Shown here piece by piece: positions 3 through 52,627 of a DNA stretch of 64,000 nucleotides. The stretch comes from a virus. Location: positions 1 through 64,000 of IMG/VR virus record IMGVR_UViG_3300034072_000514. One strand, given 5' to 3'. A program made the translations under genes and the position numbers. The notes under the pieces were generated by a model that saw only the letters and a list, made by a program, of their open reading frames with translations, was not told where the DNA came from and did not search any database. The first letter of the stretch is position 1. Each line of letters opens with the position of its first letter.

Positions 3-753
3 CCGTACGCTACTATTGAGGAGCAGGTGATTTCTGGTGTACACCCGGTAGTGGCGGAATATATGCTACCTACGACCAAACCTCTGGCCCAGGGTGCCCG
101 CCTTGTGGTGCCCCATGTCCTACCCCCTCCCCCGCCCGCCCGGCCCCTACTTGGTACCGTTCTGGCCCAGGGTGAGGCCCTCTGGCCCGACCACCCGTAC
201 CTCCCCTACGTAGGTGGTCTAATTGAGCATGAAAGCTGCATTTCTCTGACTCATTCAAGGTGCTGGAGCCCTACGTCTCGTCTTAAGACAGAAAAGGAGG
301 AAGGCGCAGGCCTTGGGCAATTTCACCAGAGCTTGGAACCCTAAGACGGGTCAGCTAAGGTTTGATGTAGTCCAAGAGCTTATGGAGAGGTACCCTAAAG
401 AGCTTGGAGAGCTTTCATGGAGTAATATCTATCAGAGACCTGACCTTCAGATCATAGGTATCTATCTTAAGCTTAAAGAAAACTATGATCAATACAAATT
501 TACCAGAGAGCCTCTAGCGTTTGCTGATGCTGCCTACAACGGAGGTAATGCTGATGTTCGTAGGGAGATTCGCGCTTGTAAGTTAGGGAAGGACTGCGAC
601 CCTACAATCTGGTTTAATAATGTTGAACGCTTTTGCGTCAAGAAACCGGGCGCACATACTGGCGGTAGGTCAGCGTGTGAGATCAATAGATACCATGTTA
701 GAGATGTATTTAATCGTGCGGAGAAATACCGTGCAAGCTTAGGTAATAAATAA
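3..753 (+). CDS. SLT-domain lytic transglycosylase, 5'-truncated by the window edge. The reading frame breaks once, from the frame of 27..344 to the frame of 313..753.
   Basis: GGLIEHES (catalytic Glu) and GLGQF lie in the first frame and AAYNGG lies in the second. These three SLT signatures are therefore split over two overlapping ORFs. The first frame stays open back to nt 3. Confidence 0.7.
61..220 (+). repeat. GC-rich element, copy E1. It is a divergent copy embedded in the open SLT reading frame.
   Basis: G+C-rich island sharing ccccatg/tacccc/ttggtacc blocks with 42331..42468. A perfect 14-nt direct repeat tctggcccagggtg occurs at 83..96 and 161..174, exactly 78 nt apart. Confidence 0.6.
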
Positions 754-2697: not shown

Positions 2698-3771
2698 ATG
2701 AGCACTGCCACCGCTAAAAAGCCTTTAATCAATTTGAATGCTTACCACTCTAACCTTGGAGTATTTATCCATCCTGTTTCTACTTACCAATCATTTGTTA
2801 AGTGGCCTGATAGTGTTCGGATAAATGGTGTACTTGTAACTGAGTACCCAAAGTTTGGTATTAATAATAACATCATCAAACTGGAATCTATTGATAATCT
2901 CAAGGTAGAAATTCTTACTCCGGGTAGAGATACTCAAGTAGGCTGGCAGCTTATGGATGAGTCCCTTGCGTCAGATAAGATACCGCTGACTTTGACCATG
3001 GAGGAGCTGCACAAGTCATGGTGTGAGGAAGATGACGACTACTTGCTATCTGGCCCAAAACAAAAGCTAGGTGCTCTTTATAAGGAAGCTTACACAAGGT
3101 CAGAGGATGCTTATGTTGAAGCAGAGATCTCTATAACAAACAAAGGAGCTTATCAGATCGATAACTTGTACTCCTCTAACTTCTCAATTAAGCTCGCAAC
3201 TAGCCAGCCTGGGGCTACAGTAGTACAACTGAAAGATATCGCTACTTTTGAAGAGATAGCTAAGATGCTGGTTCCTGAGCTTCTTATTGCAAATGCGCCA
3301 TGCAGGTTATCCGGTACGTTCTTGTTTAATATTATTAGAGCTTACATTCGAGATAACATAAACTCTAAGTATGCAAAGATAACAGCAGATTCAAACAATT
3401 ACTTTATAGTAGCTAGGCGAGTGATAACTCAACCAACACCCTTTAGGAAAGAAGTATTAACTAGAGGAGGTAATAGCTATAGGCCGCCGAGGTTTCAGTC
3501 ATCCTTCGCTAATGAGAAGTATGTGCAGATATTCTCTATGGCATCGCCAGACGCTTACGGTAGCTACCACTCATACGGGCTAGTAAGCGGCTTGGAAGCG
3601 AATAGCCTAGTAGACCTCTATGAGAAGCTAGGAGAAATGTTAAACTTCATTATTCGAGAAATCAACCTGTCAGTATCGAATTGCCCTCACTGCGAAGGGA
3701 CTGGTTTGGTAGAGGCAGGTAATGCGTATACATGGGCAGAAGTCAAGGAAAAGCTCATGAAAAGTGAGTAA
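2698..3771 (+). CDS. Hypothetical protein with a C-terminal DnaJ-type CxxCxGxG motif
   Basis: 357-aa ORF. NCPHCEGTGLVE lies near the C-terminus. Confidence 0.7.
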   Translation: MSTATAKKPLINLNAYHSNLGVFIHPVSTYQSFVKWPDSVRINGVLVTEYPKFGINNNIIKLESIDNLKVEILTPGRDTQVGWQLMDESLASDKIPLTLTMEELHKSWCEEDDDYLLSGPKQKLGALYKEAYTRSEDAYVEAEISITNKGAYQIDNLYSSNFSIKLATSQPGATVVQLKDIATFEEIAKMLVPELLIANAPCRLSGTFLFNIIRAYIRDNINSKYAKITADSNNYFIVARRVITQPTPFRKEVLTRGGNSYRPPRFQSSFANEKYVQIFSMASPDAYGSYHSYGLVSGLEANSLVDLYEKLGEMLNFIIREINLSVSNCPHCEGTGLVEAGNAYTWAEVKEKLMKSE

Positions 3772-3800
3772 ATCTTTGTATCTATAACAGAAGACTTAAT
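3760..3800 (+). promoter_or_regulatory. Early-region repeat, degenerate copy C
   Basis: aaaagtgagtaaatctttgtatctataacagaagactta aligns with copies A and B. It overlaps the stop codon of the upstream gene. Confidence 0.35.
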
Positions 3801-3845
3801 AAAGCTTCTATCTTTTTTGTTAATTATCTTAAATCAGGAGTGATT

Positions 3846-6355: not shown

Positions 6356-8020
6356 TTGATCGAAAACTCCATAATTTCTAATATAATGTTATCTGAAGAG
6401 CAACAAATACTAGCTGAATCAGACGCAAGCCCTCAAGAGCAAGAACCTGTCACTATTTTGGACTGCTTAGTTGCTGATCTTGCTAAACGGCTTTCAGAGC
6501 TGCGAGCAGACAGACAACGGTATACGCACTACCTAAAAGGTACCGATCCAGCCCATCTTATGGAGCTTGGCTATGTATCTCTGCTTGCTGGTATCCAAAA
6601 GAAGGGCACTCTAGTCGAAGTCTGCAGCTCTATTGGTCGGCAGGTTATGGCTATGAAGAAGATGCCGCTAGAATCAGTAGTGGAAGTACATACTGGTTGG
6701 TTTATTCTGATTAGCTTTCTAGAATTAGATATCATCCACTTCTACACAAAGAAGTCATACCACAACAACCGAGCAAGCCAGTACCCTACTTATCACATCT
6801 CAGTGAAGGATTGGGCAGCTATTGGTCAGTTGATGACTATGATTAACAAGGAGCGTGTAGGAGCAATCTTACCCTCTACTAAAGTTCCTGATCCTTGGAC
6901 TTCTGTTTATCACAGCTCGGGAGCTACTATCGTAAAGAAGATTCACTCTTCGATACGTGGGCAACTATCTCCAGAAAAGCAGCCTATACTGTTTAACAAT
7001 CTAAACAAGCTACAGGCAACCGGCTGGCGAATTAATCCTGAAACCTTTTCTGTTTATGAGCAATGTTTGAAGCAGGCTAGCGGGAAGAAGCCTCCGGTGG
7101 ATTCCCCGTTTAAGTTCAGTTCTGAGGAAGACCCGAACCGTAGAGAATCTTTGTTCAGAGAGGCAGAAACAATTAGCAACATCGCTAAGTTGTTCTTGCA
7201 TGAGCCATTCTACCATATGTACAACTATGATTTTCGGTATCGGTTGTATGTTATGACCGCTTACTTACATGAGCAGTCATCTGACAATGCCAAGGGTCTG
7301 CTATTATTTAATGAAGGCGTCCCGTTAGGTAAGGATGGTTTGTATTGGTTAAAGATTCATTGTAGCAACACCTGGGGTCACGACAAGGACACTAAGGAAG
7401 GTCGTGCAAACTTTACATCCAATAATATCAAAGTTTGGATTGAGTACGCTAAAAATCCGCTGATTAACCGTGGTTGGATGAAAGCAGATGCTCCATTTTC
7501 TTTCCTAAGCTGCTGCTTTGAGCTCAAGAAGCTTAGGGACTGGCTCATAGCTGGAAAGAGTATTGAAACATTTGTTAGTCATCTACCTTGCTATATCGAC
7601 GGCTCAACCAATGGTACTCAGCATCTGACAGCGATGTCTAAGGATGAGTCGATTGCACATCTTGTCAACCTGGTTCCGACGGAGCTTCCAGGTGATCTTT
7701 ATATGTACATCGCGGGGCATACCTGGAATACTATTAAGGAGGCGTATGATCGAACACCAAAAGAGATTGTAGCTAAGTTTCAATCTGTCTGGGATGAAGG
7801 CCGCCGATTGCATTCGCTATATGCATCTGCTCCGCCAAAGTCAGAACAGCGTGTTGCGGCTTATGCTAAAGTTTCAGAGTGGCGTAACCATAATCGGGAC
7901 ATCCGAGAAGCTCTCTTTCCGGTATACTGGATGGGCGTTGACAACCCTAAAGACCAGCGTAAAGCAGTTAAGCGCCCTGTGATGACTCTCGGTTACGGAG
8001 GCACAGCCTACGGCATGGGT
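6356..8020 (+). CDS. T7-like single-subunit RNA polymerase, exon 1
   Basis: DFRYRLY (T/DxxGR region), YIDGSTNGTQH (motif A) and KRPVMTLGYGG (motif B). The start is uncertain (TTG 6356 or ATG about 6386). The exon ends at the U at 8020. Confidence 0.9.
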
Positions 8021-8800
8021 TAATATAGGCTCATGTAAAATCTCGTGAATTCGGTGAACAGCCTCTTAGAGGCCAATACCGAGCCAAGCTTAACCGATAA
8101 GGTTTTGAAGGTGTAACGACTATTCCGAAAGGAAGTACATCCAAGTGGATGGAAGCGCGAGACAGCGTTAAAGCTGAAGAGATAGTCTGATCTATACAGT
8201 AATGTATAGCGGTTGCGTCGCTGTAACCGGAGAATATATGGAAGAGATTTGGAAGAGTGTAGATAATTACGAAGGGGCGTATGAAGTCTCTTCTTTAGGT
8301 AGAATTAGAAGTTTAGATAGAGTAGCCGTAGACGGCTCTAATATTAAAGGTAGATTACTAAAGTTTTCATATGATGGGTCAGGATACCATAAAGTGAACT
8401 TATTTAAATTTGGTGAAAATCAATATTTAAAAGTCCATAGGTTAGTAGCTATTGCATTTGTTCCTAATCCTGAAGGTTTACCACAAGTGAACCATAATGA
8501 TGGTAACAAAGAAAATAATTTCTATAAGAATTTAATTTGGTGCACTAATCAAACAAGTACGATCCATGCATACGAGAATAAGTTAACTACCAATCAAGGC
8601 GAAACACATTATAAAGCTAAGTTAGATAAAGAAAAAGTTTTATTTATTAGAGCTTCTACTTTAAGTGTAGCTGAGCTTTCTGATAAATTAGGCGTATCTA
8701 GCTCCAGTATAAGAGATGTGATTAATCGTAGGTATTGGAAATCTGTGTAAATTAAGCGACGCAACGGTGTTAGCCTAACAAACTGACATGAACATAAATG
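8021..8800 (+). mobile_element. Group I intron in the RNAP gene
   Basis: It interrupts motif B. Joining 8020 to 8801 gives ...YGMG|QQVNDDT in frame. The core gaattcggtgaa..gtaacgactat..gatagtctgatctata is shared with the intron at 17650..18433, and the intron ends in ...cataaatG. Confidence 0.8.
8238..8750 (+). CDS. Intron-encoded HNH homing endonuclease (NUMOD4 + HNH + C-terminal HTH-like)
   Basis: WKSVDNYEGAYEVSSLGRIRS, then HRLVAIAFVPNP..VNHNDGNKENN..NLIW. The ORF is looped out between complementary segments ggttgcgtcgc and gcgacgcaac. Confidence 0.85.
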   Translation: MEEIWKSVDNYEGAYEVSSLGRIRSLDRVAVDGSNIKGRLLKFSYDGSGYHKVNLFKFGENQYLKVHRLVAIAFVPNPEGLPQVNHNDGNKENNFYKNLIWCTNQTSTIHAYENKLTTNQGETHYKAKLDKEKVLFIRASTLSVAELSDKLGVSSSSIRDVINRRYWKSV

Positions 8801-11267: not shown

Positions 11268-11350
11268 ACATGACAAAGACCTTGATAGCCTTTAATTTAG
11301 GCGTAATGTGGGTGCTTTAATAGCGAGCCTAACAGTAAAATACCTACTTT

Positions 11351-11520
11351 AGCGAGTCTGCTCGGTGGCGGCGACCTCAGGGGTGACCCGCCTGGTACCC
11401 AGGTTGGTCCAGCTAGGTACCCCGGCGCGGGTGGGATGGGGGTACCCATGGGCCGGGTCAACGGCTCGCCCTAGGCCCAACCACCAGGGGACGCTAAAGC
11501 CCCAGTGGCCTCCCCCGGTT
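11351..11520 (-). repeat. GC-rich element, copy E2, inverted relative to E1 and E3
   Basis: Hand count gives about 70% G+C over 11381..11440. 11433..11451 is the exact reverse complement of 42358..42376 (19/19). 11391..11417 is the reverse complement of 42392..42418 (25/27). It contains three GGTACC palindromes. Confidence 0.65.
11481..11510 (+). promoter_or_regulatory. GACGCTAAAGC motif, copy A (candidate phage-RNAP promoter ahead of the replication block)
   Basis: caccaggggacgctaaagc is identical over 19 nt to the copy near 20207..20225. The 11-nt core recurs at 42612..42622. All copies are followed by agtggc or aggtggc. Confidence 0.4.
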
Positions 11521-11742
11521 AATAATAGTATTATTATATTATTGTTAACCATATCTCTTAGTGGTACATACAGTTCCCTGTAGTATCCCTCTCTTGTTAG
11601 CTGTTAGTTTACTTACTAATAACTTACTATGTAGAGCTTACCTGCTGTTAGCTTGCAGTAGGTATTATTCTCATCTAACCTCCCTAATTGCTGTTTTAGA
11701 AGGATAATTTATGTTTAAGTTCTAATAAGGTTTATAAAGCAT

Positions 11743-16292: not shown

Positions 16293-17649
16293 ATGACTAG
16301 ATTAGTGTTCGACATTGAGGCGAATGGGCTTCTTAAGGATGTCTCAAAAATATGGATGCTTTGTGCGGAAGATCTGGACACAGGAGTTAAATACGATTTT
16401 TGTGACTATGACTCTTCCTGCTATCCTCTTAAGGAGTACAAAGATCTGTTAGCGGAAGCTGATGAGTGTATCGGTCACTTTGTGCTAGGCTACGACTTTC
16501 CTGCACTCGCTAAAGTAGACGGCTTCGTTCTACCTAAAGGGGTTAAGGTTAAGGATACGTTGCTGATGTCGCAGGTGTTAGACTATATGCGATTCGGCTA
16601 CGATGGTCATAGCTTAGATCGGTGGGGTGAATATCTTGGAATCCCTAAACCTGAGCATAAAGTCTGGACTGAGTACTCTCCTGAAATGTTGCACCGCTGT
16701 CGGGAAGATAGGAGGATTAACGTTGAAACCTACAAACTTTTAGTTAATGAGTTCAAGAAGCTACACAGCAAAAAGCCGGTAATTGCCCAGTCACTGCGTA
16801 ATGAGCATAAATGTTTACAGTTTGTAACCCAAGCTGAAATCCTTGGTTGGCCTTTTGATGTACCGGCTGCTGAGAAGCTATTGTTGGAGATCGAGGAGGA
16901 AGAAAGAAAGGTAGCACAAAAAGTTGAACCACTTTTACCTCCATTAATTCGTCTTGCAGACAAGGAAATTAAGGAGCCTAAATGGACAGCTTCCGGTAAG
17001 TACCATAGTCATATTGCTAAGTATTTCGAGATCGACCCTGAAGACGGTCTTCGTGACTTTCCTACAGTAGTAGGCCCGTACATGAAGATTGATCTTATCA
17101 AACCTGATATGGGCTCGATCGAAGCAGTTAAGCAGCTGTTATACTCTATTAATTGGGAACCAGATGATTGGACTTGGAAAAAGGAAGGACGGTCTCTTAC
17201 TAAGAAAGCCCCTAAGCTCTCCACAAGTTCTCTTTTGCCGCTTGGAGAAATAGGAGAGGCAATCGACAAGTTCTATACGCTTAGAAGTAGGGCTTCAATG
17301 GTCCGCGGACTTCTTGAAGAAGTTGATGATAATGGAAGAGTTCACGGTAGCTGCTTTCTTATTGGAACACCCACAGGACGCTCCACCCACAAAGGAATTG
17401 TTAACATACCAGGTGGTGAAGCTCTATATGGCGAAGCAATTCGGAAACTATTCATAGCTAGACCTGGTCACAAAGTTATTGGTGCGGACTCGTCTGGTAA
17501 TCAGATGCGTGCTTTTTGCCATTATCTGCGTAACGATGAGTACACGAATGAGGTGATCAACGGGGATGTCCATACTAAAAATATGGAGGTTCTGCAAGAG
17601 ATTGTCCCGTCTACCACACGGAAAAAGGCTAAGCCATTTTTGTATGCGT
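16293..17649 (+). CDS. Family A DNA polymerase, exon 1
   Basis: VFDIEANGL (Exo I), GADSSGNQMR (motif A) and RKKAKPFLYA (first half of motif B). Confidence 0.9.
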
Positions 17650-18433
17650 CGAATGAGAGCGCAGTTTAAACCGGGAGAATTCGGTGAATCCCCGCTAGGG
17701 CAATACCGAGCCGAGCTTAAGTAGCAATACTTTTGAAGGTGTAACGACTATCCCGAAAGGGAGTACACTCAAGCGAGTGGAAGCACCCGGCATGAGAAAT
17801 CATGATGATATAGTCTGATCTATATAGTAATATATAGCTGTTGCCGCACAACAGAGAAATAAATGGAAGAAGTTTTTGTACCAATAACAAATTACGAAGG
17901 TATTTATGAAATATCGAATTTAGGTAGAGTCAAGAGTTTAGCCAGGGTATCTGCAAGCGGAGCTAAACTAGCACCAAAGATCTTAAAGACATCAGTCAAT
18001 GGCGCTGGTTACCTTAGCGTTTCGCTGTATAAAGGCGAAGGTAAGTGGACAACAAGAGTTCATTGCTTGGTAGCCGCTGCTTTTGTAGAAAATAAGAACC
18101 CCGCTAAATTCAATATAATAAACCACCTTGATGGAGACAAACTCAACCCTGCTAGCACAAACTTAGAGTGGAGCGACCACTCAGGCAACGCACTGCACAG
18201 CTACGCTAGCGGTTTAAGTAGTAACCAAGGTATAACTCACCGATCGAACAAGCTAACTGAAGATGAAGTTAGGTATATTAGATCACAAAAGGGATTGGTA
18301 CATATAGATGAGCTAACTAGTAAATTCAACGTACACCGCCAGACCATTTACGGTATTTGGCAAGGTAAGTACTGGAAGAGTTTGAAATAAGCGGCAACGG
18401 TAGTAATCTAGCGAATTACTGCGAACACAAATG
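17650..18433 (+). mobile_element. Group I intron in the DNA polymerase gene
   Basis: Joining 17649 to 18434 gives KPFLYA|FLFGGGADK, a complete Pol A motif B. The core is highly similar to the intron at 8021..8800, and the intron ends in ...cacaaatG. Confidence 0.8.
17863..18390 (+). CDS. Intron-encoded HNH homing endonuclease (NUMOD4 + HNH)
   Basis: ITNYEGIYEISNLGRVKS, then HCLVAAAFVENKNP..INHLDGDKLN..NLEW. Confidence 0.85.
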   Translation: MEEVFVPITNYEGIYEISNLGRVKSLARVSASGAKLAPKILKTSVNGAGYLSVSLYKGEGKWTTRVHCLVAAAFVENKNPAKFNIINHLDGDKLNPASTNLEWSDHSGNALHSYASGLSSNQGITHRSNKLTEDEVRYIRSQKGLVHIDELTSKFNVHRQTIYGIWQGKYWKSLK

Positions 18434-20155: not shown

Positions 20156-20868
20156 CTCTGATAGACGGCGACCCTCTCGTGTACACCGCGAGCTGGGGCA
20201 AGGCCACACCAGGGGACGCTAAAGCACACCTCAGGTGGCTGGTGAACGATGCGATTGAGACTACTATGGCTGAGGACTATCTTATAGCAATAGGTAACAG
20301 GGATAGCTCACGTAATTTCAGGTGTGAGCTGTTTCCTTTCTATAAGAAGTCTGCTACACGGCAAGGCTCTAAGGAGAAGTTGCAAGACTGGTTTCCTAAG
20401 ATCAAAGACTGTCTTGCCGGGATGCTTAATGTTTATGAGTGCGATGGGTACGAGGCTGACGATCAGCTGCGTATCTGGGCAGGTGAAGCTGAAAGAAGCT
20501 CTGACCCTTTTGTGATACACTCTATTGATAAAGATCTGGACGCTATTGTTGGATTACACTACAACTCTAAGCGGAAGGAATTTTACAAAGTACCGCAGGA
20601 ATACGCTGATTGGTTCTTTTGGAAGCAATGTCTTATGGGAGACTCCATTGACAATATTCCAGGGATACCTCGCGTAGGTCCTGTTACCGCAGATAACATT
20701 TTAGCTCCCGGCAAGAACTGGGATGACTGGGAACGACTCACAGTAACTGCCTACAAAGGTAAATACGGTGATCAGTGGTGGGAGTACCTTATGGCAAATG
20801 CTAGATTGCTTCATATCTGGCGCTTTCATAATGACCACTTCCAACTTGACAAGGCTAAGTACGACTAA
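20149..20868 (+). CDS. 5'-3' exonuclease / flap endonuclease
   Basis: LIDGDPLVY, YEADDQL, IDKDL and the H3TH segment GDSIDNIPGIPRVGPVTA. Confidence 0.85.
   Translation: MLALIDGDPLVYTASWGKATPGDAKAHLRWLVNDAIETTMAEDYLIAIGNRDSSRNFRCELFPFYKKSATRQGSKEKLQDWFPKIKDCLAGMLNVYECDGYEADDQLRIWAGEAERSSDPFVIHSIDKDLDAIVGLHYNSKRKEFYKVPQEYADWFFWKQCLMGDSIDNIPGIPRVGPVTADNILAPGKNWDDWERLTVTAYKGKYGDQWWEYLMANARLLHIWRFHNDHFQLDKAKYD
20205..20240 (+). promoter_or_regulatory. GACGCTAAAGC motif, copy B, located inside the FEN coding sequence
   Basis: 19-nt identity with the intergenic copy A, followed by tcaggtggc. Confidence 0.3.
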
Positions 20869-22158: not shown

Positions 22159-22596
22159 ATGGCTACTGTCAAGAAAATTGACAATGGCCACTGGATGTTC
22201 CCTGAACAGCTAGACTTTAAAAAGGCCCAAGGATTCATCTACGTTATTCGTAGAGTTTCTACGGGCCAAATTTATATAGGCAAAAAGAACTTTCGTAGTG
22301 GCGCTAAAAAAGATTTTGGGCGTCAATCAAACTGGAGATCATATACCAGCTCATCAAAAGATGTAAATACGCTTATAGAAACGTTTGGTAAAGAGGACTT
22401 CCGGTTCTTTGTTGTAGAACAATACTACACCAAAGGTGGCTTAGGCTGGGCCGAAACGTGGTCCCAATGCTATGCTGAAGTAGCATCAAATCACGTGAAA
22501 TACCTAAACAGGTTAATTGAGAAAGTCAGCTGGAAATCTACAGAGAAGGTTACAGACAGACACAAAGATAGATTAACTAAACTCATGAATCTATAA
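22159..22596 (+). CDS. Free-standing GIY-YIG homing endonuclease (Seg-like)
   Basis: GFIYVIRRVSTGQIYIGKKNFRSG near the N-terminus. Confidence 0.65.
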   Translation: MATVKKIDNGHWMFPEQLDFKKAQGFIYVIRRVSTGQIYIGKKNFRSGAKKDFGRQSNWRSYTSSSKDVNTLIETFGKEDFRFFVVEQYYTKGGLGWAETWSQCYAEVASNHVKYLNRLIEKVSWKSTEKVTDRHKDRLTKLMNL

Positions 22597-24302
22597 TGGG
22601 AAAAGTAGTCAAAGCACATGTAGCTTGCTACGACACAGAAGGTTGCGGCAGCAGTGATGCGATGAGCATTTATGACGATGGTTTTGCTCACTGCTTTGCC
22701 TGCAACAAAAACTTTAAATCACGTGAGGACGGTGACGAACCAAGTCATACTCATGTGGAACGGAGTCAAAATAAATTGACAACAAAAAACAACGTACCTA
22801 GTATTTTAGAAATCGGTGAGTACGGTGTTCGTGGGTTCCAGAGTCGACAAATTAAAAAGGCTACCTGCGAGCATTTTGGAGTTAAAGTTAGTATTGATAG
22901 CTCCACTGGAGAGTTCGATGCTCATTATTATCCGTATACATCAAAGGGTAATGATGAGATTCATGGCTACAAAATCAGAAGGATGCCTAAAGAGTTTATT
23001 GTGTCAGGTAAGCAAAAAGGCTTATTTGGCGCTAATAAAGTAGACGGTTCCTCGGACAAAATGATTGTAATTGCCGAGGGCGAAATTGATGCTATGTCAA
23101 TTGCGCAAGCTTGGTTTAATAAATACGCAAAGTGGTACCCTGTTGTCACAATGGGTAGCGCGTCAAATGTAAAGGAGCTTCTAAACCACCGAGAGTGGAT
23201 TCGCTCATTTGATAAGGTAGTTTTATGGTTTGACAATGATGAGCCAGGCCGAAAAGCAGTATCTGAAGCTGCGCGCATTATCGGCTATGACAAGTGCTAT
23301 GATGTGCAGTCAGCTTTTAAGGATGCTAATGAAGCACTCTTATCAGACCCGAAAGACCCATCAGTAATCCTAAACCCGATTTACTCGGCTAAGCCATTCA
23401 GCCCGGTTGGGATTGTGTCTTCAGCATCTACTTGGGATATCTACAAGAAGAGCTCAAGCGCACAGTATGTCCCTTACCCTCCGTTCATGGAAACCCTTAA
23501 CGCTAAGAATTACGGCAGGCGTATGGGTAGTATCACGCTGTTAACATCTGGTACTGGTATGGGTAAGACATCTTGGGTGAAAGAGGATCAGTTCTTCCTG
23601 CACAAAACCCGACCAGCGGATGAGCGTATTGGTGTGCTGTCTCTTGAAGAGTCGGTAGCAGAAGCGGTTCAGAATCTTATGGCGCTAGAAGCTAATAAGC
23701 GTATTCAACTGCCAGATGTAGGTATGACAGATGAGGAAGAGCGTGCTTATTGGGAAGCTACTATGGGTAGTGACCGCTTTATGTTCCTGGACCACCAAGG
23801 CTCTATGGAGGACTCCTCGCTGGTAGATAAGATGGAGTACATGTGTCTCTCCGGTTGTAAGTTCTTGTATTTGGACCACATTACTATTGCTGTTAGTGAG
23901 TCTGCTAGTGCAGGTGCTGGTGACACTAATACTGCTATTGACAGCCTTATGTCTGACTTGCTTAAGCTAGCAAAAAGGCATGATGTATGGATTTGCGTTA
24001 TCTCGCATCTGCGCAAGACACCAAATGGTCAAAAATCATTTGAAGAAGGTGCAGTTCCTAGCGAAGATGATCTTAAGGGCTCAGGGTCTCTTAAGCAAAT
24101 CCCTATGCAAACATTTGCCATCTCTCGCAATAAGATGGACAAAGACCCTATTAAACAAAATACATCCATGTTCTGGGTGTTGAAAGACCGATTCACTGGA
24201 CGTACAGGATACGTAGACTCCTACCGATTTGATGAAGTAGATGGTCGATGCCATCGTGTAGATGCGGTGGAAGAGTCTTTTGAAGCGCTGGATTCAGAAT
24301 GA
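22596..24302 (+). CDS. Bifunctional primase-helicase (T7 gp4-like)
   Basis: N-terminal Cys4 zinc finger (CYDTEGC...HCFAC), TOPRIM (IAEGEIDAMS, LWFDNDEPG), and DnaB-type Walker A SGTGMGKT and Walker B FLYLDHI. Confidence 0.85.
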   Translation: MGKVVKAHVACYDTEGCGSSDAMSIYDDGFAHCFACNKNFKSREDGDEPSHTHVERSQNKLTTKNNVPSILEIGEYGVRGFQSRQIKKATCEHFGVKVSIDSSTGEFDAHYYPYTSKGNDEIHGYKIRRMPKEFIVSGKQKGLFGANKVDGSSDKMIVIAEGEIDAMSIAQAWFNKYAKWYPVVTMGSASNVKELLNHREWIRSFDKVVLWFDNDEPGRKAVSEAARIIGYDKCYDVQSAFKDANEALLSDPKDPSVILNPIYSAKPFSPVGIVSSASTWDIYKKSSSAQYVPYPPFMETLNAKNYGRRMGSITLLTSGTGMGKTSWVKEDQFFLHKTRPADERIGVLSLEESVAEAVQNLMALEANKRIQLPDVGMTDEEERAYWEATMGSDRFMFLDHQGSMEDSSLVDKMEYMCLSGCKFLYLDHITIAVSESASAGAGDTNTAIDSLMSDLLKLAKRHDVWICVISHLRKTPNGQKSFEEGAVPSEDDLKGSGSLKQIPMQTFAISRNKMDKDPIKQNTSMFWVLKDRFTGRTGYVDSYRFDEVDGRCHRVDAVEESFEALDSE

Positions 24303-26587: not shown

Positions 26588-27150
26588 ATGGGTCTCGGTC
26601 ACTTTAGTAAAACATACAAGCCTATGCTTCAACCTTGGGCTTTCGAGCTGTGGGAGAAGCATGAAGATATTCACTGGACGGCTAAAGAAGCGTCTCTTAG
26701 CGATGATGTGGTTGACTGGAAGCGTAAGCTTACACCTCTGGAGAAAGAGTTTGTTATTAATATTCTCCGGCTATTTACTCAATCGGATGTGCAAGTTGGT
26801 AAGAACTACTATGATTTCTTGATTCCCGTATTCAAGAATAACGAAGTTCGAAATATGCTAGGTAGCTTTGCCAACCGTGAAGCTACTCACCAAACAGCAT
26901 ACGCACTTCTTAATGACACCCTAGGTCTACCTGATGAAGAGTTCCATAAGTTCTTGGAATACAAGGAGATGTCAGATAAGATTGACTTTATGGCTGACAA
27001 TAATATCGACACTGAAACAGGTGTTGCGTTAGCTTTGGCTAAGTCGGTATTTTCTGAAGGTGTCTCGCTCTTCTCCTCATTTGCCATGCTGCTCCAGCTG
27101 CAAACGGTAGGTAAAATGAAGGGTATGTGTACCATCGTAGAATGGAGCAT
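26588..27150 (+). CDS. nrdB: Ribonucleotide reductase beta subunit, exon 1
   Basis: NREATHQ (first ExxH) and GKMKGMCTIVEWSI. Confidence 0.9.
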
Positions 27151-27886
27151 TAAATCTGGTGCTCGTAAAATCTATTGAATTGCTGGGATAGCTCTAGTAG
27201 CCAATCAGCAGCCAAGCTTACTGACCTGAAAGAAAGGTCAATATGAAACCACATCCAATTTACACTAAGTACTCTGCTAACGAGTTAGGTAAAATTATTG
27301 GAATTAGAGGCGAGATAACTCCGCACTTCCATAAAAGTACGGGTTACCTGAGATTTTCTATCAGGCATGATGGCAAAATCAAATCTATTGCCGCTCATAG
27401 ATTTATTTGGGAATGTATTAACGGGTTAATTGCCGATGATACACTAGAAATAAATCATAAAGACGGTGATAAGACGCACAATAAGCTAGTAAATTTAGAG
27501 CTGGTTACAGCTTCTGAGAATTGTTTACATAGGTCTACACTTTACTCCGAGACAGGTAGAGGGGAGTCTAATGCAGCTGCTAAACTAAGTGAAATACAGG
27601 CAAAAGAGTTAATATCTCTTCTACCTTATAAACGTAATGTCGAGCTGGGTTTACAATTTGGTCTTCACCCGCAGTATGTTTCTTTAATTAGGACAGGTAA
27701 GCGGTGGAAGCATTTACAATAGTGGTCAGTAAGAAGGTTCAACGACTATCCCTAAGGGGAGTACACCTAAGTAGGTGGAAGCAGTAGATACAGGAAACTG
27801 TAATGATATAGTCTGATCTATATGGCGACATATAGCTGCAAGTAAAGTTGCGGGTATTGATTAACGACCAATACTGAACATAAATG
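27151..27886 (+). mobile_element. Group I intron in nrdB
   Basis: Joining 27150 to 27887 gives WSI|RDETLH (second ExxH iron ligand) in frame. The 5' part (aattgctggga..cagcagccaagctta) resembles the intron at 52628..53392. The intron ends in ...cataaatG. Confidence 0.8.
27243..27722 (+). CDS. Intron-encoded HNH homing endonuclease
   Basis: HRFIWECINGLI...INHKDGDKTHNKLVNLE. The ORF is looped out between tactgacc and ggtcagta. Confidence 0.8.
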   Translation: MKPHPIYTKYSANELGKIIGIRGEITPHFHKSTGYLRFSIRHDGKIKSIAAHRFIWECINGLIADDTLEINHKDGDKTHNKLVNLELVTASENCLHRSTLYSETGRGESNAAAKLSEIQAKELISLLPYKRNVELGLQFGLHPQYVSLIRTGKRWKHLQ

Positions 27887-41780: not shown

Positions 41781-41857
41781 CCCTCTTATACGCTTGCTGG
41801 GTACCTTCGGGTGCCTGGTGGGTGTATAAGAGGGGTATTTCTCTTCTATTTTTTTTG
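41781..41857 (+). terminator. Strong compound hairpin terminator closing the replication block
   Basis: 11-bp outer stem ccctcttatac (41781..41791) / gtataagaggg (41824..41834), an inner ggtacc-ttcg-ggtgcc hairpin, then a T-rich tail ending in tttttttt. A further 8-bp hairpin lies at 41731..41762. Confidence 0.65.
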
Positions 41858-41885
41858 CTTTTATTTTGCTATATTTTGGAGGCCT

Positions 41886-42302
41886 ATGAGCTTACTCGAT
41901 AGAAAAGGTCCGGTATTCTATGTATATTTACACTATGAAATCGTAAATGGTAATAGGGAAATTGTGTATGTAGGTAAGGGTTCAGGCGGTAGGGCATGGG
42001 ATGCTAGACCTACTACTAGAGGTAATAACGGAGGGCATAATGACCATTGTGGGTGGATATGCGATAAGATCCTTAATGATGTACCGTTTGTCCAGCTATT
42101 CGCTACTAAAATCCTGAGTAGTGAGGCACTAGAAATTGAAAAGAGGTTGAGAGAACAGTATAAGCCTCGGTTTAATGTCTCTAGTGGTAACTCAAATCTA
42201 AGTAACTCAAATCTAAGTAACTCAAATCTAAGTAACTCAAATCTAAGCGCTAGGGGCATGACTGTTGGCGATCTGAAGGCTTCTGCTTTGACGGTGAGCT
42301 AG
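41886..42302 (+). CDS. Free-standing GIY-YIG-type endonuclease with a C-terminal pentapeptide repeat
   Basis: VFYVYLHYEIVNGNREIVYVGKGSGGRAW, with (SNSNL)x4 near the C-terminus. Confidence 0.6.
   Translation: MSLLDRKGPVFYVYLHYEIVNGNREIVYVGKGSGGRAWDARPTTRGNNGGHNDHCGWICDKILNDVPFVQLFATKILSSEALEIEKRLREQYKPRFNVSSGNSNLSNSNLSNSNLSNSNLSARGMTVGDLKASALTVS
42187..42246 (+). repeat. Perfect 15-bp tandem repeat x4 (gtaactcaaatctaa)
   Basis: Read directly from the sequence. It is in frame inside the GIY-YIG ORF. Confidence 0.95.
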
Positions 42303-42330
42303 CTTTACAGTGGATAGCTCGCCTAAGGTT

Positions 42331-42468
42331 GCTCCACCTTGGGCCTGGGAGCCCTCCCCATGGGTACCCCCATCCCGACCCCACAAGGGTGCCTAGCCGG
42401 ACCAACCTGGGTACCAGACGGGCACACCGTGGGTTCTGGCAGGTGACAGGCGGCTGCGGGGTGACAAA
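42331..42468 (+). repeat. GC-rich element, copy E3
   Basis: Shares 19/19 and 25/27 blocks (inverted) with E2 and is collinear with E1. It is intergenic. Confidence 0.65.
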
Positions 42469-42529
42469 TGGTAATAAGAGAAGTAGCAGACAATTAGTAG
42501 TTCTCATCCTCTAAAGTTACCACTGTAGC

Positions 42530-42936
42530 CCTCACACTGACCATCCCTCATAACCACACCATACCCTCACCTTCCATTCCTACTTCCTCACGGGCACCCG
42601 GTACACGAGGTGACGCTAAAGCAGAAGTGGCGGGTCTGAGAGGTGGACTGCCGGGAGCATGGACTGGGGACTGTAGGGTGGACTGGACCTGGTAGAAACA
42701 TGCTATGAGACACTACTATTAAAGGTAGGAGGGTAGGGTGGAGGGTTCTCTATAATATTATAATATACCTTAAGGTACCTAATATATCCTTAATATACCT
42801 TTAAGATACCGTAGCGTAAGCTGCTAACCATGATTAATCAAATAATTAAAATCAAATAAATAAATTATAAAGAATTTTATAGTATCTAACAGTACCTAAT
42901 AGATACTATAAGGTTCTCTTTATAGGGTTTTTATAT
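42530..42936 (+). promoter_or_regulatory. Structured non-coding region: C-rich tract, G-rich tract with GGACTG x4, AT-rich repeats and a 10-bp inverted repeat
   Basis: GGACTG starts at 42645, 42661, 42668 and 42680. taatatacct-TAAG-gtacc occurs at 42761..42779 and 42791..42810. tatagtatct (42878..42887) pairs with agatactata (42901..42910). Confidence 0.45.
42603..42635 (+). promoter_or_regulatory. GACGCTAAAGC motif, copy C (candidate promoter ahead of the morphogenesis block)
   Basis: acacgaggtgacgctaaagcagaagtggcggg has the same core and the same downstream agtggc as copy A. Confidence 0.4.
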
Positions 42937-43773: not shown

Positions 43774-44430
43774 ATGAGCGCAAAGACTACAGGTCCTGGT
43801 AGGACTATTAAGCGCAAGGCACTTGTAAATATTCAACCCTTGCACTCTTCATCTCGGCTCGGTGAGCTTGGGATGGATCCACTTCAGGCTACTATTGATA
43901 ACATTAGGGCTATGGAGTTGCAACTTTATATGATGAGGCAGTTGCCTAAGCGGACTCTTATTGGTGAGGTAACGCTTCAAGGGCAGATCTCTAAGGCTTT
44001 GCAGAGCTTGATTCCTTATGGTTATCTTACTGCTGCTGAGGCTGAACGGCAATTGGCTATTATGAGGGAGAAGGGTGTAGGGGATGCTGAGGGTGATGAG
44101 GGGATTCAGATCTTTCTCACATCGCAGGACAATGCTGTATCTGCGGAGATTTCGATGGGAAAACACAAGGTGAGTACGTTTCCAGAAAACCCGAATATCG
44201 AAACTAACACTATTGGTGCCCCAGAATCTACATCCACTGGTGCCACTGCATTTGTGCCTGATGCAAATATCCCTGAGGAGTTACGTGGAATGCACTATGC
44301 AGACCGTGTAGATATTGAAGCTGGTATCGCTGTGTACCAGACAGAGGATGGTGAAATTAAGGATCTTAGTAAGACCTCAAGTAGCACTATCGGCTCTGTT
44401 ATGTCTAGTAACGGACCTTCGCATGCCTAA
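43774..44430 (+). CDS. Hypothetical protein, possibly the small terminase subunit (by position only)
   Basis: 218-aa ORF directly upstream of and overlapping TerL. RBS is taggaggg. Confidence 0.4.
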   Translation: MSAKTTGPGRTIKRKALVNIQPLHSSSRLGELGMDPLQATIDNIRAMELQLYMMRQLPKRTLIGEVTLQGQISKALQSLIPYGYLTAAEAERQLAIMREKGVGDAEGDEGIQIFLTSQDNAVSAEISMGKHKVSTFPENPNIETNTIGAPESTSTGATAFVPDANIPEELRGMHYADRVDIEAGIAVYQTEDGEIKDLSKTSSSTIGSVMSSNGPSHA

Positions 44431-45739
44431 GATTGTTCTTCATCCAGGGCAATCAAAGGCTATCGCTCATTTGTTCCCTTCTATTGGTGCTAAATACGTA
44501 AGGTACGCACCTGTAGTAGCCTCTCGGGGTTTCGGTAAGTCTTATGCGGCTGCCTCTGCAAGTATGATGGGTGTTAATGAGCTACTGCGCATGCCTATTA
44601 GTGTTCCTAATAAGAATGTGAGTATCATTGCACCTACATTTGACCAAGTAACAGATATCTACTGGCCCTTGCTGGCTCATGTGATGGGCCTTGAACGGTT
44701 AGCTATTAAGTCCTCTAGAGACCTAGGTAGATTCTGGTTTAAGAACGGCACACAACTACGTTTATGGTCTTATGAGGCTATTGAGCGTATGCGTGGTACA
44801 GGCCAGTTCATGGTGGCGCTTGATGAGGTGACCTCTTGGAGAGGTAAGCCTGGTTTGCAAGACGCATGGGAGTCGATCATTCACCCTGCTATGGTAACCC
44901 GATGGGCTGACAATCATCGTGGACTGATCATCTCAACACCAAGAGGCTACGATTACTTCTATGACATGACTAACATGCAGGAGAAGGATGATCGTTGGAA
45001 GACCTTTCACTACAGCTATCGTGATTCTCCGTACCTTAGTGCTGAGGAGATTGAGCGTATTAAGGCCAACACTGACCCACTTAAGTTTGCTCGTGAGTAT
45101 GAGGCTAACTTTAAGGAATCTGGCTCTGGTGTGTTCTACATGTTCAGCCGCGATGATCATGTTACTCGAAACATTGATGACTGGCAGAATGGTGAGGATG
45201 TGCATGCGTGTATCGACTTTAACGTAGGTATTCAAGCGACCAGTATCTTTGCTCTTAGAAGTAACCAAATGCACTTCTTAGATGAGATGCAAGGGCATCC
45301 CGACACAGACTCTCTTGCGAAGAGACTCAAGCACCAATTCATCGACAAAGGTCATAAGGTGTACGCTTACCCTGACCCATCAGGTAACTCTAGGAAGACG
45401 TCTGCTCCTGTAGGGCAAACAGACTTTAGCATTCTTGAAGCTCATGGTATCTCTGTTAGAGTTAAAGGGCAGGTGCCTTTGGTTGATAGCGCTAATGCTG
45501 TTAACCGCATGCTGATGAACGGTAGTGGGCAAATCAATATGTACTTCCATACAGACCGTGTACCTAACACAATTCGTTCTATTGAGCGCACTGTGTGGGT
45601 GGAGGGTAAGCCTGAGAGTGCCACAATTGACAAATCTATGGGTGTTGAGCACTGGTCAGACGGTATCCGTTACGCTACTCAATACTTGTTTCCTATTATT
45701 CGTTTCCAGTTCAAGTCTGGTCAAGGCCATACATTCTAG
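44423..45739 (+). CDS. Terminase large subunit
   Basis: Walker A-like SRGFGKSYAA, Walker B MVALDEV, and nuclease-domain ACIDFNVG and YPDPSGNSR. ATG at 44423 lies within ORF 44315..45739. Confidence 0.8.
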   Translation: MPKIVLHPGQSKAIAHLFPSIGAKYVRYAPVVASRGFGKSYAAASASMMGVNELLRMPISVPNKNVSIIAPTFDQVTDIYWPLLAHVMGLERLAIKSSRDLGRFWFKNGTQLRLWSYEAIERMRGTGQFMVALDEVTSWRGKPGLQDAWESIIHPAMVTRWADNHRGLIISTPRGYDYFYDMTNMQEKDDRWKTFHYSYRDSPYLSAEEIERIKANTDPLKFAREYEANFKESGSGVFYMFSRDDHVTRNIDDWQNGEDVHACIDFNVGIQATSIFALRSNQMHFLDEMQGHPDTDSLAKRLKHQFIDKGHKVYAYPDPSGNSRKTSAPVGQTDFSILEAHGISVRVKGQVPLVDSANAVNRMLMNGSGQINMYFHTDRVPNTIRSIERTVWVEGKPESATIDKSMGVEHWSDGIRYATQYLFPIIRFQFKSGQGHTF

Positions 45740-45746
45740 GAGGACT

Positions 45747-46154
45747 ATGGTGTTCACTAAACTTAGCTCGTCAGATCACATCTTTAAACCTGTTAGAGGT
45801 AGAATTGAGGGTCGTATTTGCAAAATCATGATGGGCTCTACTAAGCCAGTTGAAAGGCTCTACACAGAGAGCATGGGTGAAGTTAGCGAAGGGTTGCTTC
45901 TTAGCATGTCCAACACTAGCTTGGTTAAGGCTGAGCCTATTCTGCGGATGGCCCTTAAGGAGCTCCAAAGAGAGACTGAGATTCCTTTGATTCATAGCGA
46001 TGTGTTTAAGCACAGCAAGGAATGGCTTATTCACATCGTCCCCAAGAGGGCTCTCCCAGAAGCTACTCTAATGAGGTTTAGCACTGTGATTGTAAACAAA
46101 GCAAGGCGTATCGGCTTTGGTAACCTTGATATCACGGTGGTCGCAGAGGAATAG
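45747..46154 (+). CDS. Hypothetical protein
   Basis: ATG follows taggagg, in the frame of ORF 45525..46154. Confidence 0.55.
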   Translation: MVFTKLSSSDHIFKPVRGRIEGRICKIMMGSTKPVERLYTESMGEVSEGLLLSMSNTSLVKAEPILRMALKELQRETEIPLIHSDVFKHSKEWLIHIVPKRALPEATLMRFSTVIVNKARRIGFGNLDITVVAEE

Positions 46155-46206
46155 CTTCACTCTGTTCTACTTATAGTTTATTAACTTTTCTGAGGATCTT
46201 CAATAC

Positions 46207-46959
46207 ATGCCCAAAGGTACTCCACGCAAGGAACGCACTAACGCTACACGACCTGCTCGCGGTAGCTCTAATTATGCAGCTAAGCATGATCAGTATAGTG
46301 GCGGTAAGTTCCATATCACAGCTAAGAACGTTAAACAACAGTTCTTGCTAGATAGTATTGAAGGCTCGGCTATTACGGTAGCTCTCGGCCCTGCAGGTAC
46401 AGGTAAGACTTATGTGTCTGTAAAGAAGGCTGTGCAGCTATTCATGCAGACAGGTTCAGGCTATAGGAAGATTATCCTTGCTCGCAGTATCATCCCTACA
46501 GGTAAGTCTATGGGCTACCTTCCTGGAGACGTGACTGAGAAGCTTGTACCGTGGGTGCTCCCTATGCTGAGCGTTATTGAGGATTCACTCGGTAAGAGCC
46601 AGATGGAGTATCTGATGGCTACAGATGCGATTGAGATTCAACCTCTTGAGACTATTCGTGGACGCTCATTTGAGAATGCGCTTATCCTTATTGACGAGGC
46701 TCAAAACCTTGACTTTGAGGAGATTAAGGCCATCACTACTCGCCTTGGTGAGGGTAGCAAGATGATTCTTATGGGTGACGCATGGCAGTCTGATATTCGC
46801 GGTGACACACCTTTGCTGGACTTCTGTGCTATGTGCGAACGGGCTAACATTAGCATCCCTGTGGTGCAATTCTCTATCAATGAGATTGTGCGTAGTGATA
46901 TTGTCGGTGCGCTCGTTAAGATGTTTCATCTTGAAGGCCGTATGGGCCATCGGGACTAG
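46207..46959 (+). CDS. phoH: PhoH-like ATPase
   Basis: GPAGTGKTYV, ILIDEAQNL and MGDAWQSD. Confidence 0.85.
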   Translation: MPKGTPRKERTNATRPARGSSNYAAKHDQYSGGKFHITAKNVKQQFLLDSIEGSAITVALGPAGTGKTYVSVKKAVQLFMQTGSGYRKIILARSIIPTGKSMGYLPGDVTEKLVPWVLPMLSVIEDSLGKSQMEYLMATDAIEIQPLETIRGRSFENALILIDEAQNLDFEEIKAITTRLGEGSKMILMGDAWQSDIRGDTPLLDFCAMCERANISIPVVQFSINEIVRSDIVGALVKMFHLEGRMGHRD

Positions 46960-52100: not shown

Positions 52101-52627
52101 AAGAGCTATCCATCCAGCTAGGGGCTATGATCGGTCCTGCTACTGAGGCACTTACTCAAGCAGGCCGTATGGAGATATTTATTCGTAATGAAAAGGACGT
52201 TCTTAGTTTGGGTAGGCTGATGATGAGCACTACTCAGAGAGACCGACGAATTAGAGAGTTCCTTGAGCACCCTCTTATTCGCTCTCATGATGCAGAAGAA
52301 ATTCCTAAGATTTCTCGTATGGCACTTGAATATGCCCGCGTATATGATCATGTTGGAGGTAATTTCGGTGATCTCGCTAAGCTACGTACTTATAACACAA
52401 AGCTAATGATTGAGAACGACGCTTCCTCTTCGGGAGCTCAGATTATTGGGCTCTCTACGGGTGATCGATCTATCTCTATTAATAGTAATGTGCTTGCAAC
52501 TGACAAGAAGAACCGACTGTATGACTTGGTCGCTATGGATACTGCTAGTGACCCAGAGTTCCATGCTATCAAGGCTCTTTCAGGAGCTAACATACAGTGG
52601 ACCGATCTTGCAAAAGCAGCTAAGGCT
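49184..52627 (+). CDS. MuF/SPP1-gp7 head-morphogenesis domain fused to a single-subunit RNA polymerase, exon 1
   Basis: YRFTAVLDARTSAICSGLDGKVF..PPMHWNCRSSTVPV (MuF), AQIDGRGRVYY (T/DxxGR) and MIENDASSSGAQIIG (motif A). Confidence 0.85.

Follow-up and report, generated by a model that had tools for sequence, protein, structure and literature searches.

A GC-rich patch in a phage transglycosylase gene, read as inherited coding sequence with a probable overlaid cis-element, and the conserved frame break downstream of it

Introduction

Near the beginning of a 64-kb piece of phage genome (positions 1 to 64,000 of the IMG/VR record IMGVR_UViG_3300034072_000514; this whole stretch is called the window below), a strongly GC-rich patch, E1, lies inside the gene of a lytic transglycosylase and carries two identical 14-nt sequences in direct orientation. 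The window has 44.1% GC and nearly all of its long open reading frames (ORFs) are on the + strand. A first-pass annotation had interpreted E1 as a mobile GC cluster that inserted in frame and duplicated the sequence at its borders, had regarded two intergenic elements of the window as its relatives, and had compared it with the GC clusters of yeast mitochondria. Here, we ask whether E1 is an insertion and, if it is not, what keeps it so rich in G and C. Ortholog comparison together with a structural model refutes the mobile insertion and indicates that E1 is old, inherited coding sequence; this correction is the main value of our analysis. Beyond that, we assign a probability of roughly 0.6 to the reading that the ancestral coding sequence is overlaid by a conserved cis-element. 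The same gene also exhibits a conserved frame break, which may be a more rewarding lead than the GC patch itself.

The supposed insert encodes a part of the catalytic domain

The gene and the patch comprise the following features, all on the + strand.

65 to 225, +: GC-rich patch E1, in the transglycosylase gene; 67.7% GC against 44.1% for the window
83 to 96, +: copy 1 of the direct repeat TCTGGCCCAGGGTG, coding for (P)LAQG
161 to 174, +: copy 2 of TCTGGCCCAGGGTG, overlapping a conserved 17-mer
3 to 344, +: upstream reading frame (frame 3); N-terminus outside the window, stop codon at 342-344, zero-frame end GLGQFHQSLEP*
138 to 182, +: ARPLLGTVLAQGEAL, first helix of the lytic-transglycosylase domain, homologous to residues 166-180 of the homolog P0005
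213 to 236, +: catalytic motif GGLIEHES; E-x-E-S is kept in all homologs
325 to 753, +: downstream reading frame (frame 1) with the rest of the catalytic domain, TRAWNPKTG...
764 to 807, +: intrinsic-terminator-like hairpin with a T-run, directly 3' of the gene

Much of what had been described at this site proved correct. The two copies of TCTGGCCCAGGGTG are exactly 78 nt apart and in frame, frame 3 reads ...KPLAQG ARLVVPHVLPPPPPARPLLGTV LAQG EALWPDHPYLPYVGGLIEHES across them, removal of 83-160 would take away 26 codons and leave the ORF in frame, and the strongly G+C-rich stretch between the copies lies upstream of GGLIEHES. The repeat is modestly above chance, as a direct repeat of at least 14 nt arose in 4 of 1000 dinucleotide-preserving shuffles of 61-230. 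The enzyme family had also been named correctly, but the gene does not consist of a single transglycosylase ORF: frame 3 is closed by a stop codon at 342-344, and the remainder of the domain is encoded in frame 1. When frame 3 (to 323) is joined to frame 1 (from 325), the product matches phage endolysins and lytic murein transglycosylases by tblastn as one piece that spans the junction.

The assignment to the lytic transglycosylases, here of a family-1-like type, draws on these tblastn annotations, on motifs (IEHES and GLGQ(F)T are present) and on the fold; Pfam and PDB sequence searches with the enzyme returned no match. The AlphaFold model was built for P0005, a homolog without the frame change (unshifted; pLDDT, the predicted local distance difference test, 81.6), and its C-terminal ~205 residues retrieved MltF, MltC, Slt and MltE by Foldseek with probability 1.00, at an E-value of only ~3e-3. 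In this model AREHLGTVLAQRVAL (residues 166-180) is the first high-confidence helix of the catalytic domain (pLDDT 91-98), preceded by a linker with pLDDT 49-58. Projected onto the window, E1 consists of a variable Pro/Ala-rich linker (~65-135) followed by the first helix and loop of the catalytic domain (~138-212). In alignments with generic homologs devoid of the linker, PPxA..(H)LGTVLAQ....WP falls opposite IPPRAFEHLPTLSAEVSANWP or one of its variants. Judged from the model, the 3' half of the supposed insert (PPPARPLLGTVLAQ) is thus the coding sequence of the first helix of the lytic-transglycosylase fold. In relatives, the full-length upstream ORFs are 232-259 amino acids long, with three hydrophobic helices and an AxA motif, and the place of E1 between this N-terminal hydrophobic/signal region and the catalytic domain is conserved, as is its length.

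No near relative was found by megablast among GenBank phages, and the nearest cultured capsid match is that of roseophage DSS3_VP1 (53%); the relatives that share the frame change (the shifted clade) come from ENA and Logan assemblies only. Protein searches led to five related lineages by way of the C-terminal ORF (69-79% identity) and to eight clusters of N-terminal ORFs (52-68% identity to lineage L002), and the respective contigs were fetched. The E1-homologous segment is present in all nine lineages of the clade and in the unshifted outgroup (P0005/L023), e.g., as EYMLPTTPTLPQGAPLVAAHPLPPPKAALPLLGTVLAQQRHLWP in L007, LLPTTASQPRVAAPDPRHTLPPPPPARPLLGTVLAQGVTLWP in P0123 and PTQPLAQQGTPAARPTLTPPRAAQALLGTVLAQGGAVWP in L002. 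Since the distance from EEQV to LGTVLAQ is nearly constant (44 codons in five lineages, 41 in two and 40 in P0005), there is no empty site lacking the 78 nt. The position of repeat copy 1 is likewise orthologous in all lineages, and its sequence diverges gradually (CCTCTGGCCCAACAAGG in L002, ACACTGCCCCAAGGAGCC in L007). The exact 14-nt repeat is confined to the lineage of the window; L002 shows a 10-nt repeat at the same 78-nt spacing and L021, L004, L005 and L007 none, although L021 is the nearest relative. Such gradual divergence means that the repeat is not a target-site duplication. Rather than the scar of an insertion, it represents an old and weak resemblance between two spots that encode LAQ(G), sharpened in this one lineage.

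According to the mobile-cluster interpretation, two intergenic elements would be sister copies of E1.

about 11341 to 11481, +: E2, intergenic GC-rich element directly upstream of a promoter motif (11482-11500)
42310 to 42473, -: E3, GC-rich, an inverted copy of the E2 core, ~130 nt upstream of a promoter motif (42604-42622)

Between E2 (here taken as 11341-11524) and E3 the relationship is clear: over 71 nt, one matches the other in inverted orientation at 85%, and nhmmer gives E=4e-11. For E1, the similarity is weak: in Smith-Waterman comparisons in the same orientation with E2(-) and E3(+), the observed score was reached by 1 of 300 shuffles for each pair. With nhmmer, E1 retrieved from the window only E3 at E=6.5, the E2/E3 profile missed E1 at E<=100, and a profile of the flanks found nothing. 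Within the window E1 is therefore not significantly alignable with E2 or E3, and the claim of a three-member family fails; what survives of the proposed relationship is a 17-nt motif that E1 shares with the E2- and E3-equivalents of related phages. RNA or single-strand folding of E1, E2 and E3 on both strands was no more stable than that of shuffles (z -1.7 to +1.1), and the palindrome/hairpin test on E1 gave fold z-scores of -1.7 and -1.6; an equally stable fold was reached by 10 and 17 of 200 shuffles, respectively.

Given these results, we consider it very improbable that E1 is a mobile cluster whose repeats are a target-site duplication and whose sister copies are E2 and E3. The exact repeat, the foreign-looking composition and the weak Smith-Waterman similarity would suit such an origin, but there is no empty site, the repeat is lost even in L021, E1 is not significantly similar to E2/E3, no hairpin or palindrome signal was detected, and deletion of 83-160 would cut the first helix. 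The codon composition of E1 is not ordinary, and this peculiarity is conserved in all orthologs. Furthermore, E2 and E3 occupy conserved positions in relatives instead of variable sites.

GC clusters of yeast mitochondria are palindromic, polymorphic for presence or absence between strains, and occur in many alignable copies. E1 resembles them as a short GC-rich island in an AT-richer genome, of a kind that is mostly intergenic and occasionally in frame inside genes, but differs in having no empty site, no significant hairpin and no alignable sister copy, and in encoding a structural helix. Rickettsia palindromic elements offer a second parallel: their copies can be aligned from end to end, and orthologs in other species lack them. 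As in the Rickettsia case, the sequence is translated within an otherwise normal protein and has intergenic counterparts; here, however, only a 17-nt core is shared and the segment is present in all orthologs.

From position 99 on, the sequence of the window is reproduced without any difference by a separate Logan assembly (SRR10854512), which is independent of it. The contig concerned (SRR10854512_267174, 17.7 kb, same phage) thus starts at 99, inside E1, and ends at ~17838, at a repeat in the second intron described below; several short contigs of relatives likewise begin just 5' of their own GC patch. Contig starts at the patch could be due to low coverage of GC-rich DNA, to strain variation in the linker, or to a real DNA end.

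The patch is kept GC-rich at the nucleotide level

If E1 is inherited coding sequence, its composition still calls for an explanation. In the long ORFs of the window, CCT accounts for 55% and CCC for 8% of the proline codons, and GCT for 53% and GCC for 10% of the alanine codons, while the patch uses mostly CCC and GCC. Third codon positions with G or C (GC3) number 33 of 50 in the patch against 18.0 expected from the codon usage of the window (z=4.6), and its total GC of 68% compares with 56% predicted from the amino acids. The same holds in all other lineages, in which the 50 homologous codons show 69-77% GC and a GC3 of 0.64-0.80, against a GC3 of 0.38-0.61 for the rest of the gene. In each fetched ortholog locus the E1-equivalent patch is the only GC spike, and no GC spike was seen in the same 45 codons of generic soluble lytic transglycosylase (SLT) homologs. 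Thus, of the possibility that all orthologs carry the segment with ordinary codons, one half was found and the other was not: the segment is universal, and its unusual composition is conserved with it.

Substitution patterns point in the same direction. Between lineages, the proportion of synonymous differences (pS) is 0.42-0.50 in the patch versus 0.79-0.90 (saturated) in the C-terminal part, and the amino acids of the patch change faster, the proportion of nonsynonymous differences (pN) being 0.22-0.43 versus 0.13-0.22.

A protein-only explanation has to be weighed at this point. E1 would then be an ordinary Pro/Ala linker of low complexity whose GC excess and invariant codons are by-products of composition, of a local bias in mutation or repair, or of rare-codon pausing. 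Pro/Ala linkers of membrane-anchored or exported peptidoglycan hydrolases do share with E1 the interdomain place, the variable sequence, the conserved length and the richness in P, A, G and R, and amino-acid composition alone already predicts 56% GC. Moreover, clusters of rare codons can slow translation after a membrane segment emerges, and by analogy the position of the patch just after the signal/anchor segment would fit a translational pause. However, ordinary linkers of this type follow the codon usage of the genome, while E1 uses its rarest codons and holds a near-invariant 17-mer, and the 68% GC and the GC3 excess are kept in all lineages while synonymous sites elsewhere are saturated. 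Including the coincidence that it demands of the intergenic 17-mers (see below), we regard this explanation as unlikely.

Another way to constrain nucleotides would be an overlapping gene, e.g., an embedded proline-rich, spanin-like lipoprotein as in lambda Rz/Rz1. The host gene is a lysis gene and several lineages have no stop in the +1 frame over most of the patch, but open frames are expected in GC-rich DNA, and the alternative frames have stops in L003/L004 and exhibit no conserved start, lipobox or peptide beyond the effect of the main frame. Hence, an overlapping ORF or embedded spanin was rejected as scarcely credible.

A 17-mer of the patch recurs in promoter-proximal islands of related phages

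The most strictly kept part of E1 is a single short sequence.

153 to 169, +: 17-mer GGTACCGTTCTGGCCCA, codons G T V L A Q, near-invariant among lineages

GGTACCGTTCTGGCCCA is exact in seven of the eight lineages with DNA, among them the unshifted outgroup L023, whose protein identity is only 58%; the exception, L022, has CCTACCGTTCTGGCCCA, with two different bases and a Gly to Pro change. The 17-mer is kept across lineages whose synonymous sites are otherwise saturated, and ACC-GTT-CTG-GCC is the sole run of four identical codons in the alignment of the whole gene.

An exact search of IMG/VR returned three matches, all of them intergenic, those in L025 and L026 among them. In L026, synteny with the window extends from the RNA polymerase as far as the gene at 11743, and the GC-rich island with the 17-mer is the positional homolog of E2. 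In L025, the island with the 17-mer precedes homologs of the genes at 43774-46959 and is the positional homolog of E3, in the orientation of E2. Both phages have the 17-mer on the coding strand, and the promoter motif CACCAGGGGACGCTAAAG follows 45-62 nt further downstream. L024, in which the exact 17-mer also occurs, is a phage with 38% GC and weak protein similarity to one gene product of the window (E ~1e-5); it shares ~24 nt 3' of the motif with E1 (1 of 500 shuffles). A scan of Joint Genome Institute (JGI) data added L124/L127, a more distant relative (38-46% identity to proteins of the window) whose 17-mer, again on the coding strand, belongs to an intergenic island of 72% GC. A host origin of the 17-mer (tRNA, rRNA or att site) was considered and discarded: among 185,579 bacterial genomes there were 81 scattered matches, none of them (0/81) in an SLT, promoter or GC-island context.

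The islands themselves have a recognizable setting. The phage encodes a T7-type single-subunit RNA polymerase (Pfam RNA_pol match on the Logan copy), and CACCAGGGGACGCTAAAG occurs three times on the + strand of the window, at 11482-11500, 20207-20225 and 42604-42622 (the third with two mismatches). In IMG/VR, the promoter-like 18-mer immediately precedes genes at 15 loci, the phages concerned having 36-66% GC, and CACCAGGGGACGCTAAAG resembles the core of the T3 promoter, CACTAAAG; therefore we interpret it as probably the promoter of the phage's T7-type RNA polymerase. Stretches of ~200 nt that are AT-rich (28-35% GC) follow 3' of the promoters, at 11500-11740 and 42700-42935, and the order of GC island, promoter and AT-rich stretch is found also in L025, L026 and L122. 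This layout resembles the promoter plus AT-rich arrangement of T7 replication origins. E2 has positional orthologs with a conserved core in L122 and L026. The relative L122, with 79% amino-acid identity in the flanking gene product, keeps the core CTGGGTACCAGGTTGGTCCA...GGGATGGGGGTACCCATGGG and, like E2, has no exact 17-mer; MAFFT places the 17-mer of L026 opposite the core of E2 and L122. The E2/E3 core 19-mer and 20-mer had no matches in IMG/VR. Because the E2 and E3 islands stand at conserved positions in relatives, we regard them as regulatory furniture and not as recently mobile DNA.

Next to E3, the ORF at 41811-42302, just 5' of it, has no Pfam match and contains FYVYLHY...IVYVGKGSGG, which we read as a likely GIY-YIG motif; its end carries four tandem copies of a 15-nt unit, GTAACTCAAATCTAA (42187-42246), coding for SNSNL. 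The inversion of E3 and its greater distance from the promoter than in L025 may be linked to this possibly mobile ORF.

The 17-mer is under nucleotide-level constraint and is common to promoter-proximal GC islands of related phages. E1 is situated in the last late gene, with the terminator at 764-807 and the repeated sequences of the early region (family D2) ~600 nt further on, and E1, E2 and E3 are all near boundaries between temporal gene classes.

Ancestral code with a proposed overlaid signal

How can these observations be accommodated in one scheme? In our preferred reading, to which the probability given at the outset applies, E1 is vertically inherited coding sequence: it specifies the Pro/Ala-rich linker that connects a membrane/signal region of three helices to the catalytic domain, as well as the first catalytic-domain helix, and would be translated like the rest of the transglycosylase gene. 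Over this protein code, the patch is kept GC-rich at the nucleotide level across the phage clade, and GGTACCGTTCTGGCCCA would act as a sequence-specific 17-nt signal that is also used in the GC-rich islands upstream of phage-RNA-polymerase promoters. Homology, near-constant length, composition and the invariance and recurrence of the motif are established by the comparisons above, and its role as a recognition signal is inferred from them. The patch would then serve two purposes, as protein code and as a cis-acting DNA or RNA signal, the latter possibly read by a phage-encoded factor or by the phage polymerase at the boundaries of transcription units; at E1, the boundary would be that between the last late gene, ~600 nt before the terminator, and the early region. 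The bias of the linker towards Pro, Ala, Gly and Arg may be at least partly a consequence of the GC pressure and not its cause. If so, selection on DNA or RNA, for GC content and for an exact 17-mer, is visible through the protein code and seems to drive the composition of a linker, and the 17-mer provides a handle for finding a regulatory signal in an uncultured phage group.

In T7-like phages, candidates for such a signal are a pause or termination signal of the polymerase, a binding site of a regulator, and a nick or recombination site. Phage cis-signals embedded in coding sequence include pac sites in terminase genes, the consensus nick sites of phiKMV-like phages and, at the concatemer junction, the class II pause/termination site of T7 RNA polymerase. 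The 17-mer is like them short, strand-specific and exact in sequence, with few copies per genome in coding and non-coding positions, and is conserved beyond the need of the protein; it differs from them in that its sequence matches none of the pac, class II or phiKMV-like signals. Its synonymous conservation goes together with recurrence in non-coding regulatory positions (L025, L026, L124/L127 and L024), as expected of a cis-signal.

Several observations weigh against an overlaid signal. The three exact IMG/VR matches are about the number that we estimate to occur by chance for a 17-mer, so that the argument rests on the two matches in related, syntenic phages. The exact 17-mer is absent from E2 and E3 of the window, in which only a related core recognized post hoc, GGTACCCAGGTTGGTCCA, was found. 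For the sequences flanking the 17-mer, neither Smith-Waterman nor profile comparison of E1 with the intergenic elements was significant once multiple testing is considered. RNAalifold of six orthologs provided no support by covariation (covariation term +1.2), no significant RNA structure emerged from the folding of E1, E2 and E3 reported above, and Rfam returned nothing for them at E<=5. The lower pS of the patch could reflect a third position restricted to two letters (G/C), that is, GC pressure and not a specific sequence, and only ~8 lineages were available. A degenerate pattern, GGTACC N0-3 GTT N0-2 GGYCCA, matches E1 and E2 only; it was built after seeing both and is hence not independent.

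The chance expectation of ~3 matches is also what the protein-only explanation would rely on, in treating the intergenic 17-mers as coincidence. Yet two of the three IMG/VR matches, together with L124/L127, lie in related phages, in GC-rich islands, on the same strand and beside promoters or gene starts, for which chance is a very unlikely cause.

A further possibility is that, in the common ancestor of the shifted lineages and P0005-like phages, the sequence for the catalytic domain took up in its 5' part a GC-rich intergenic element, or a portion of one, together with the 17-mer, and that this acquisition was then fixed as coding sequence. It would account for a GC spike that is specific to the clade and absent from generic homologs, for a 17-mer shared with intergenic elements, and for the ~35-40 extra residues that the clade has before the conserved IPPRA motif in comparison with short-linker homologs. 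In generic homologs, however, the part with the 17-mer has a homologous protein segment, LPTLRAE/LPVVKTE; it therefore pre-existed and was re-coded, not inserted, and its flanks have no significant similarity to the intergenic elements. We consider such a capture decidedly unlikely, and retain the overlay of a cis-element on ancestral code as the best explanation.

A conserved frame break inside the catalytic domain

Downstream of E1, the switch from frame 3 (the zero frame) to frame 1 involves three further features.

286 to 305, +: 20-mer AAGACAGAAAAGGAGGAAGG, holding the Shine-Dalgarno-like AAGGAGG (294-300)
313 to 315, +: invariant frame-1 TTG, 12 nt after AAGGAGG
321 to 327, +: frame-change site TTT C ACC, a candidate for a +1 slip

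The zero frame reads ...KTEKEEGAGLGQF HQSLEP* and frame 1 (L)GNF TRAWNPKTG..., while unshifted homologs read REEGAGLGQ(L/I)TRA(W/Y) without interruption. The break is the same across the clade: the eight clusters of N-terminal ORFs end in GLGQFHQ... with variable distance to the stop, and their C-terminal counterparts form five clusters. CAR-TTT-C-ACC-AGR-GC is conserved in six of six sequences from different lineages, and the unshifted homologs have CAA TTG ACT or CAA ATT ACC at this site. On the 5' side of TTT, the zero-frame GLGQ is kept with synonymous changes and frame 1 varies (LGN, LAS, LGS); on the 3' side, frame 1 is under strong purifying selection, as the low pN and saturated pS of the C-terminal part reported above attest. 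The switch is therefore placed at TTT_C. Both frames are under purifying selection, and the conserved slip site lies exactly where they meet. Presumably, tRNA-Phe pairs better after a +1 slip at TTT_C (UUU to UUC). AAGACAGAAAAGGAGGAAGG is invariant in the shifted clade, and the same codons vary freely in unshifted homologs. A pattern made from the frameshift region had no match in JGI metagenomes.

On the comparative evidence, we think that the conserved frame change at 321-327 is probably programmed +1 frameshifting. Known cases are prfB (CUU_UGA_C) and cps/tsh of Listeria phage PSA (CCC_UGA) (PMC5009743); a transglycosylase case is not mentioned in that 2016 review of recoding, and our literature search for an endolysin frameshift case found none. 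Two overlapping frames under purifying selection, a conserved slip site and better +1 pairing in the P-site are in line with programmed frameshifting. At the same time, no canonical +1 stimulator was recognized. Unlike prfB and PSA, the site has no zero-frame stop (the next one lies 6-13 codons 3') and no obviously slow A-site codon (CAC); the Shine-Dalgarno-like AAGGAGG ends 20 nt before TTT, instead of 3 as in known +1 frameshifts, and the site lies inside a catalytic domain. If this is correct, the gene could add a new example of +1 frameshifting, with the production of a lysis enzyme under its control.

The alternative is that AAGGAGG and TTG313 constitute an internal start, giving a separate C-terminal fragment and hence a split enzyme. 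AAGGAGG is strong and Shine-Dalgarno-like and stands 12 nt before an invariant frame-1 TTG, as such a start would require. We find it less likely, and favour frameshifting, since the three N-terminal hydrophobic helices and the AxA site suggest that the catalytic domain is exported behind them, and since the break falls inside a predicted beta-hairpin (EEGA-GLGQ-LTRAY).

RNAalifold additionally paired an invariant CCUCC (126-130, in the poly-proline codons of E1) with an invariant GGAGG (296-300). Both are present in all shifted lineages and neither in the unshifted outgroup L023, which has CCCCTAC and CGGGAAGAAGG. From the sequences, this pairing might be a long-range masking of the internal Shine-Dalgarno-like element.

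Taken as a whole, a wider scheme may be proposed, albeit tentatively and with less than even confidence. In environmental phages with T7-type RNA polymerases, GC-rich islands around GGTACCGTTCTGGCCCA or GGTACCCAGGTTGGTCCA would be cis-signals at the borders of transcription units; one clade would have written the signal into the transglycosylase, its last late gene, in which nucleotide-level selection shapes the linker and which needs a conserved +1 frameshift inside the catalytic beta-hairpin for the active enzyme.

Other features of the window

Three group I introns scored above the Rfam gathering threshold (7951-8209, 17581-17837 and 52579-52845), and an HNH/NUMOD4 ORF comes after each of them. 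The intron at 7951-8209 separates the two RNA polymerase ORFs, and the one at 17581-17837 is located immediately 3' of the ORF of a family-A DNA polymerase. A fourth match, at ~27120-27840, is below the threshold (31.9 bits, E=5e-6); it is associated with an HNH ORF (27243-27722) and lies 3' of the N-terminal 196 amino acids of a ribonucleotide reductase small-subunit gene.

Upstream of small ORFs of the early region stand the members of a repeat family of 49 nt, GTATAAAAAGTGAGAAAAATCATGTATCTATAATAGAAGAATCTTTTAA, at 806-854, 1390-1438, 3755-3803 and 22564-22612; the copies at 806-854 and 1390-1438 are 94% alike. The repeats were not called as promoters by a simple sigma-70 scan; they are probably early promoter/leader cassettes. 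Finally, the early region includes an ORF of 357 amino acids (2698-3771), for which a Pfam match to Gad1 (PF25705) was recorded on the Logan copy and which has a homolog at the same place in L002.

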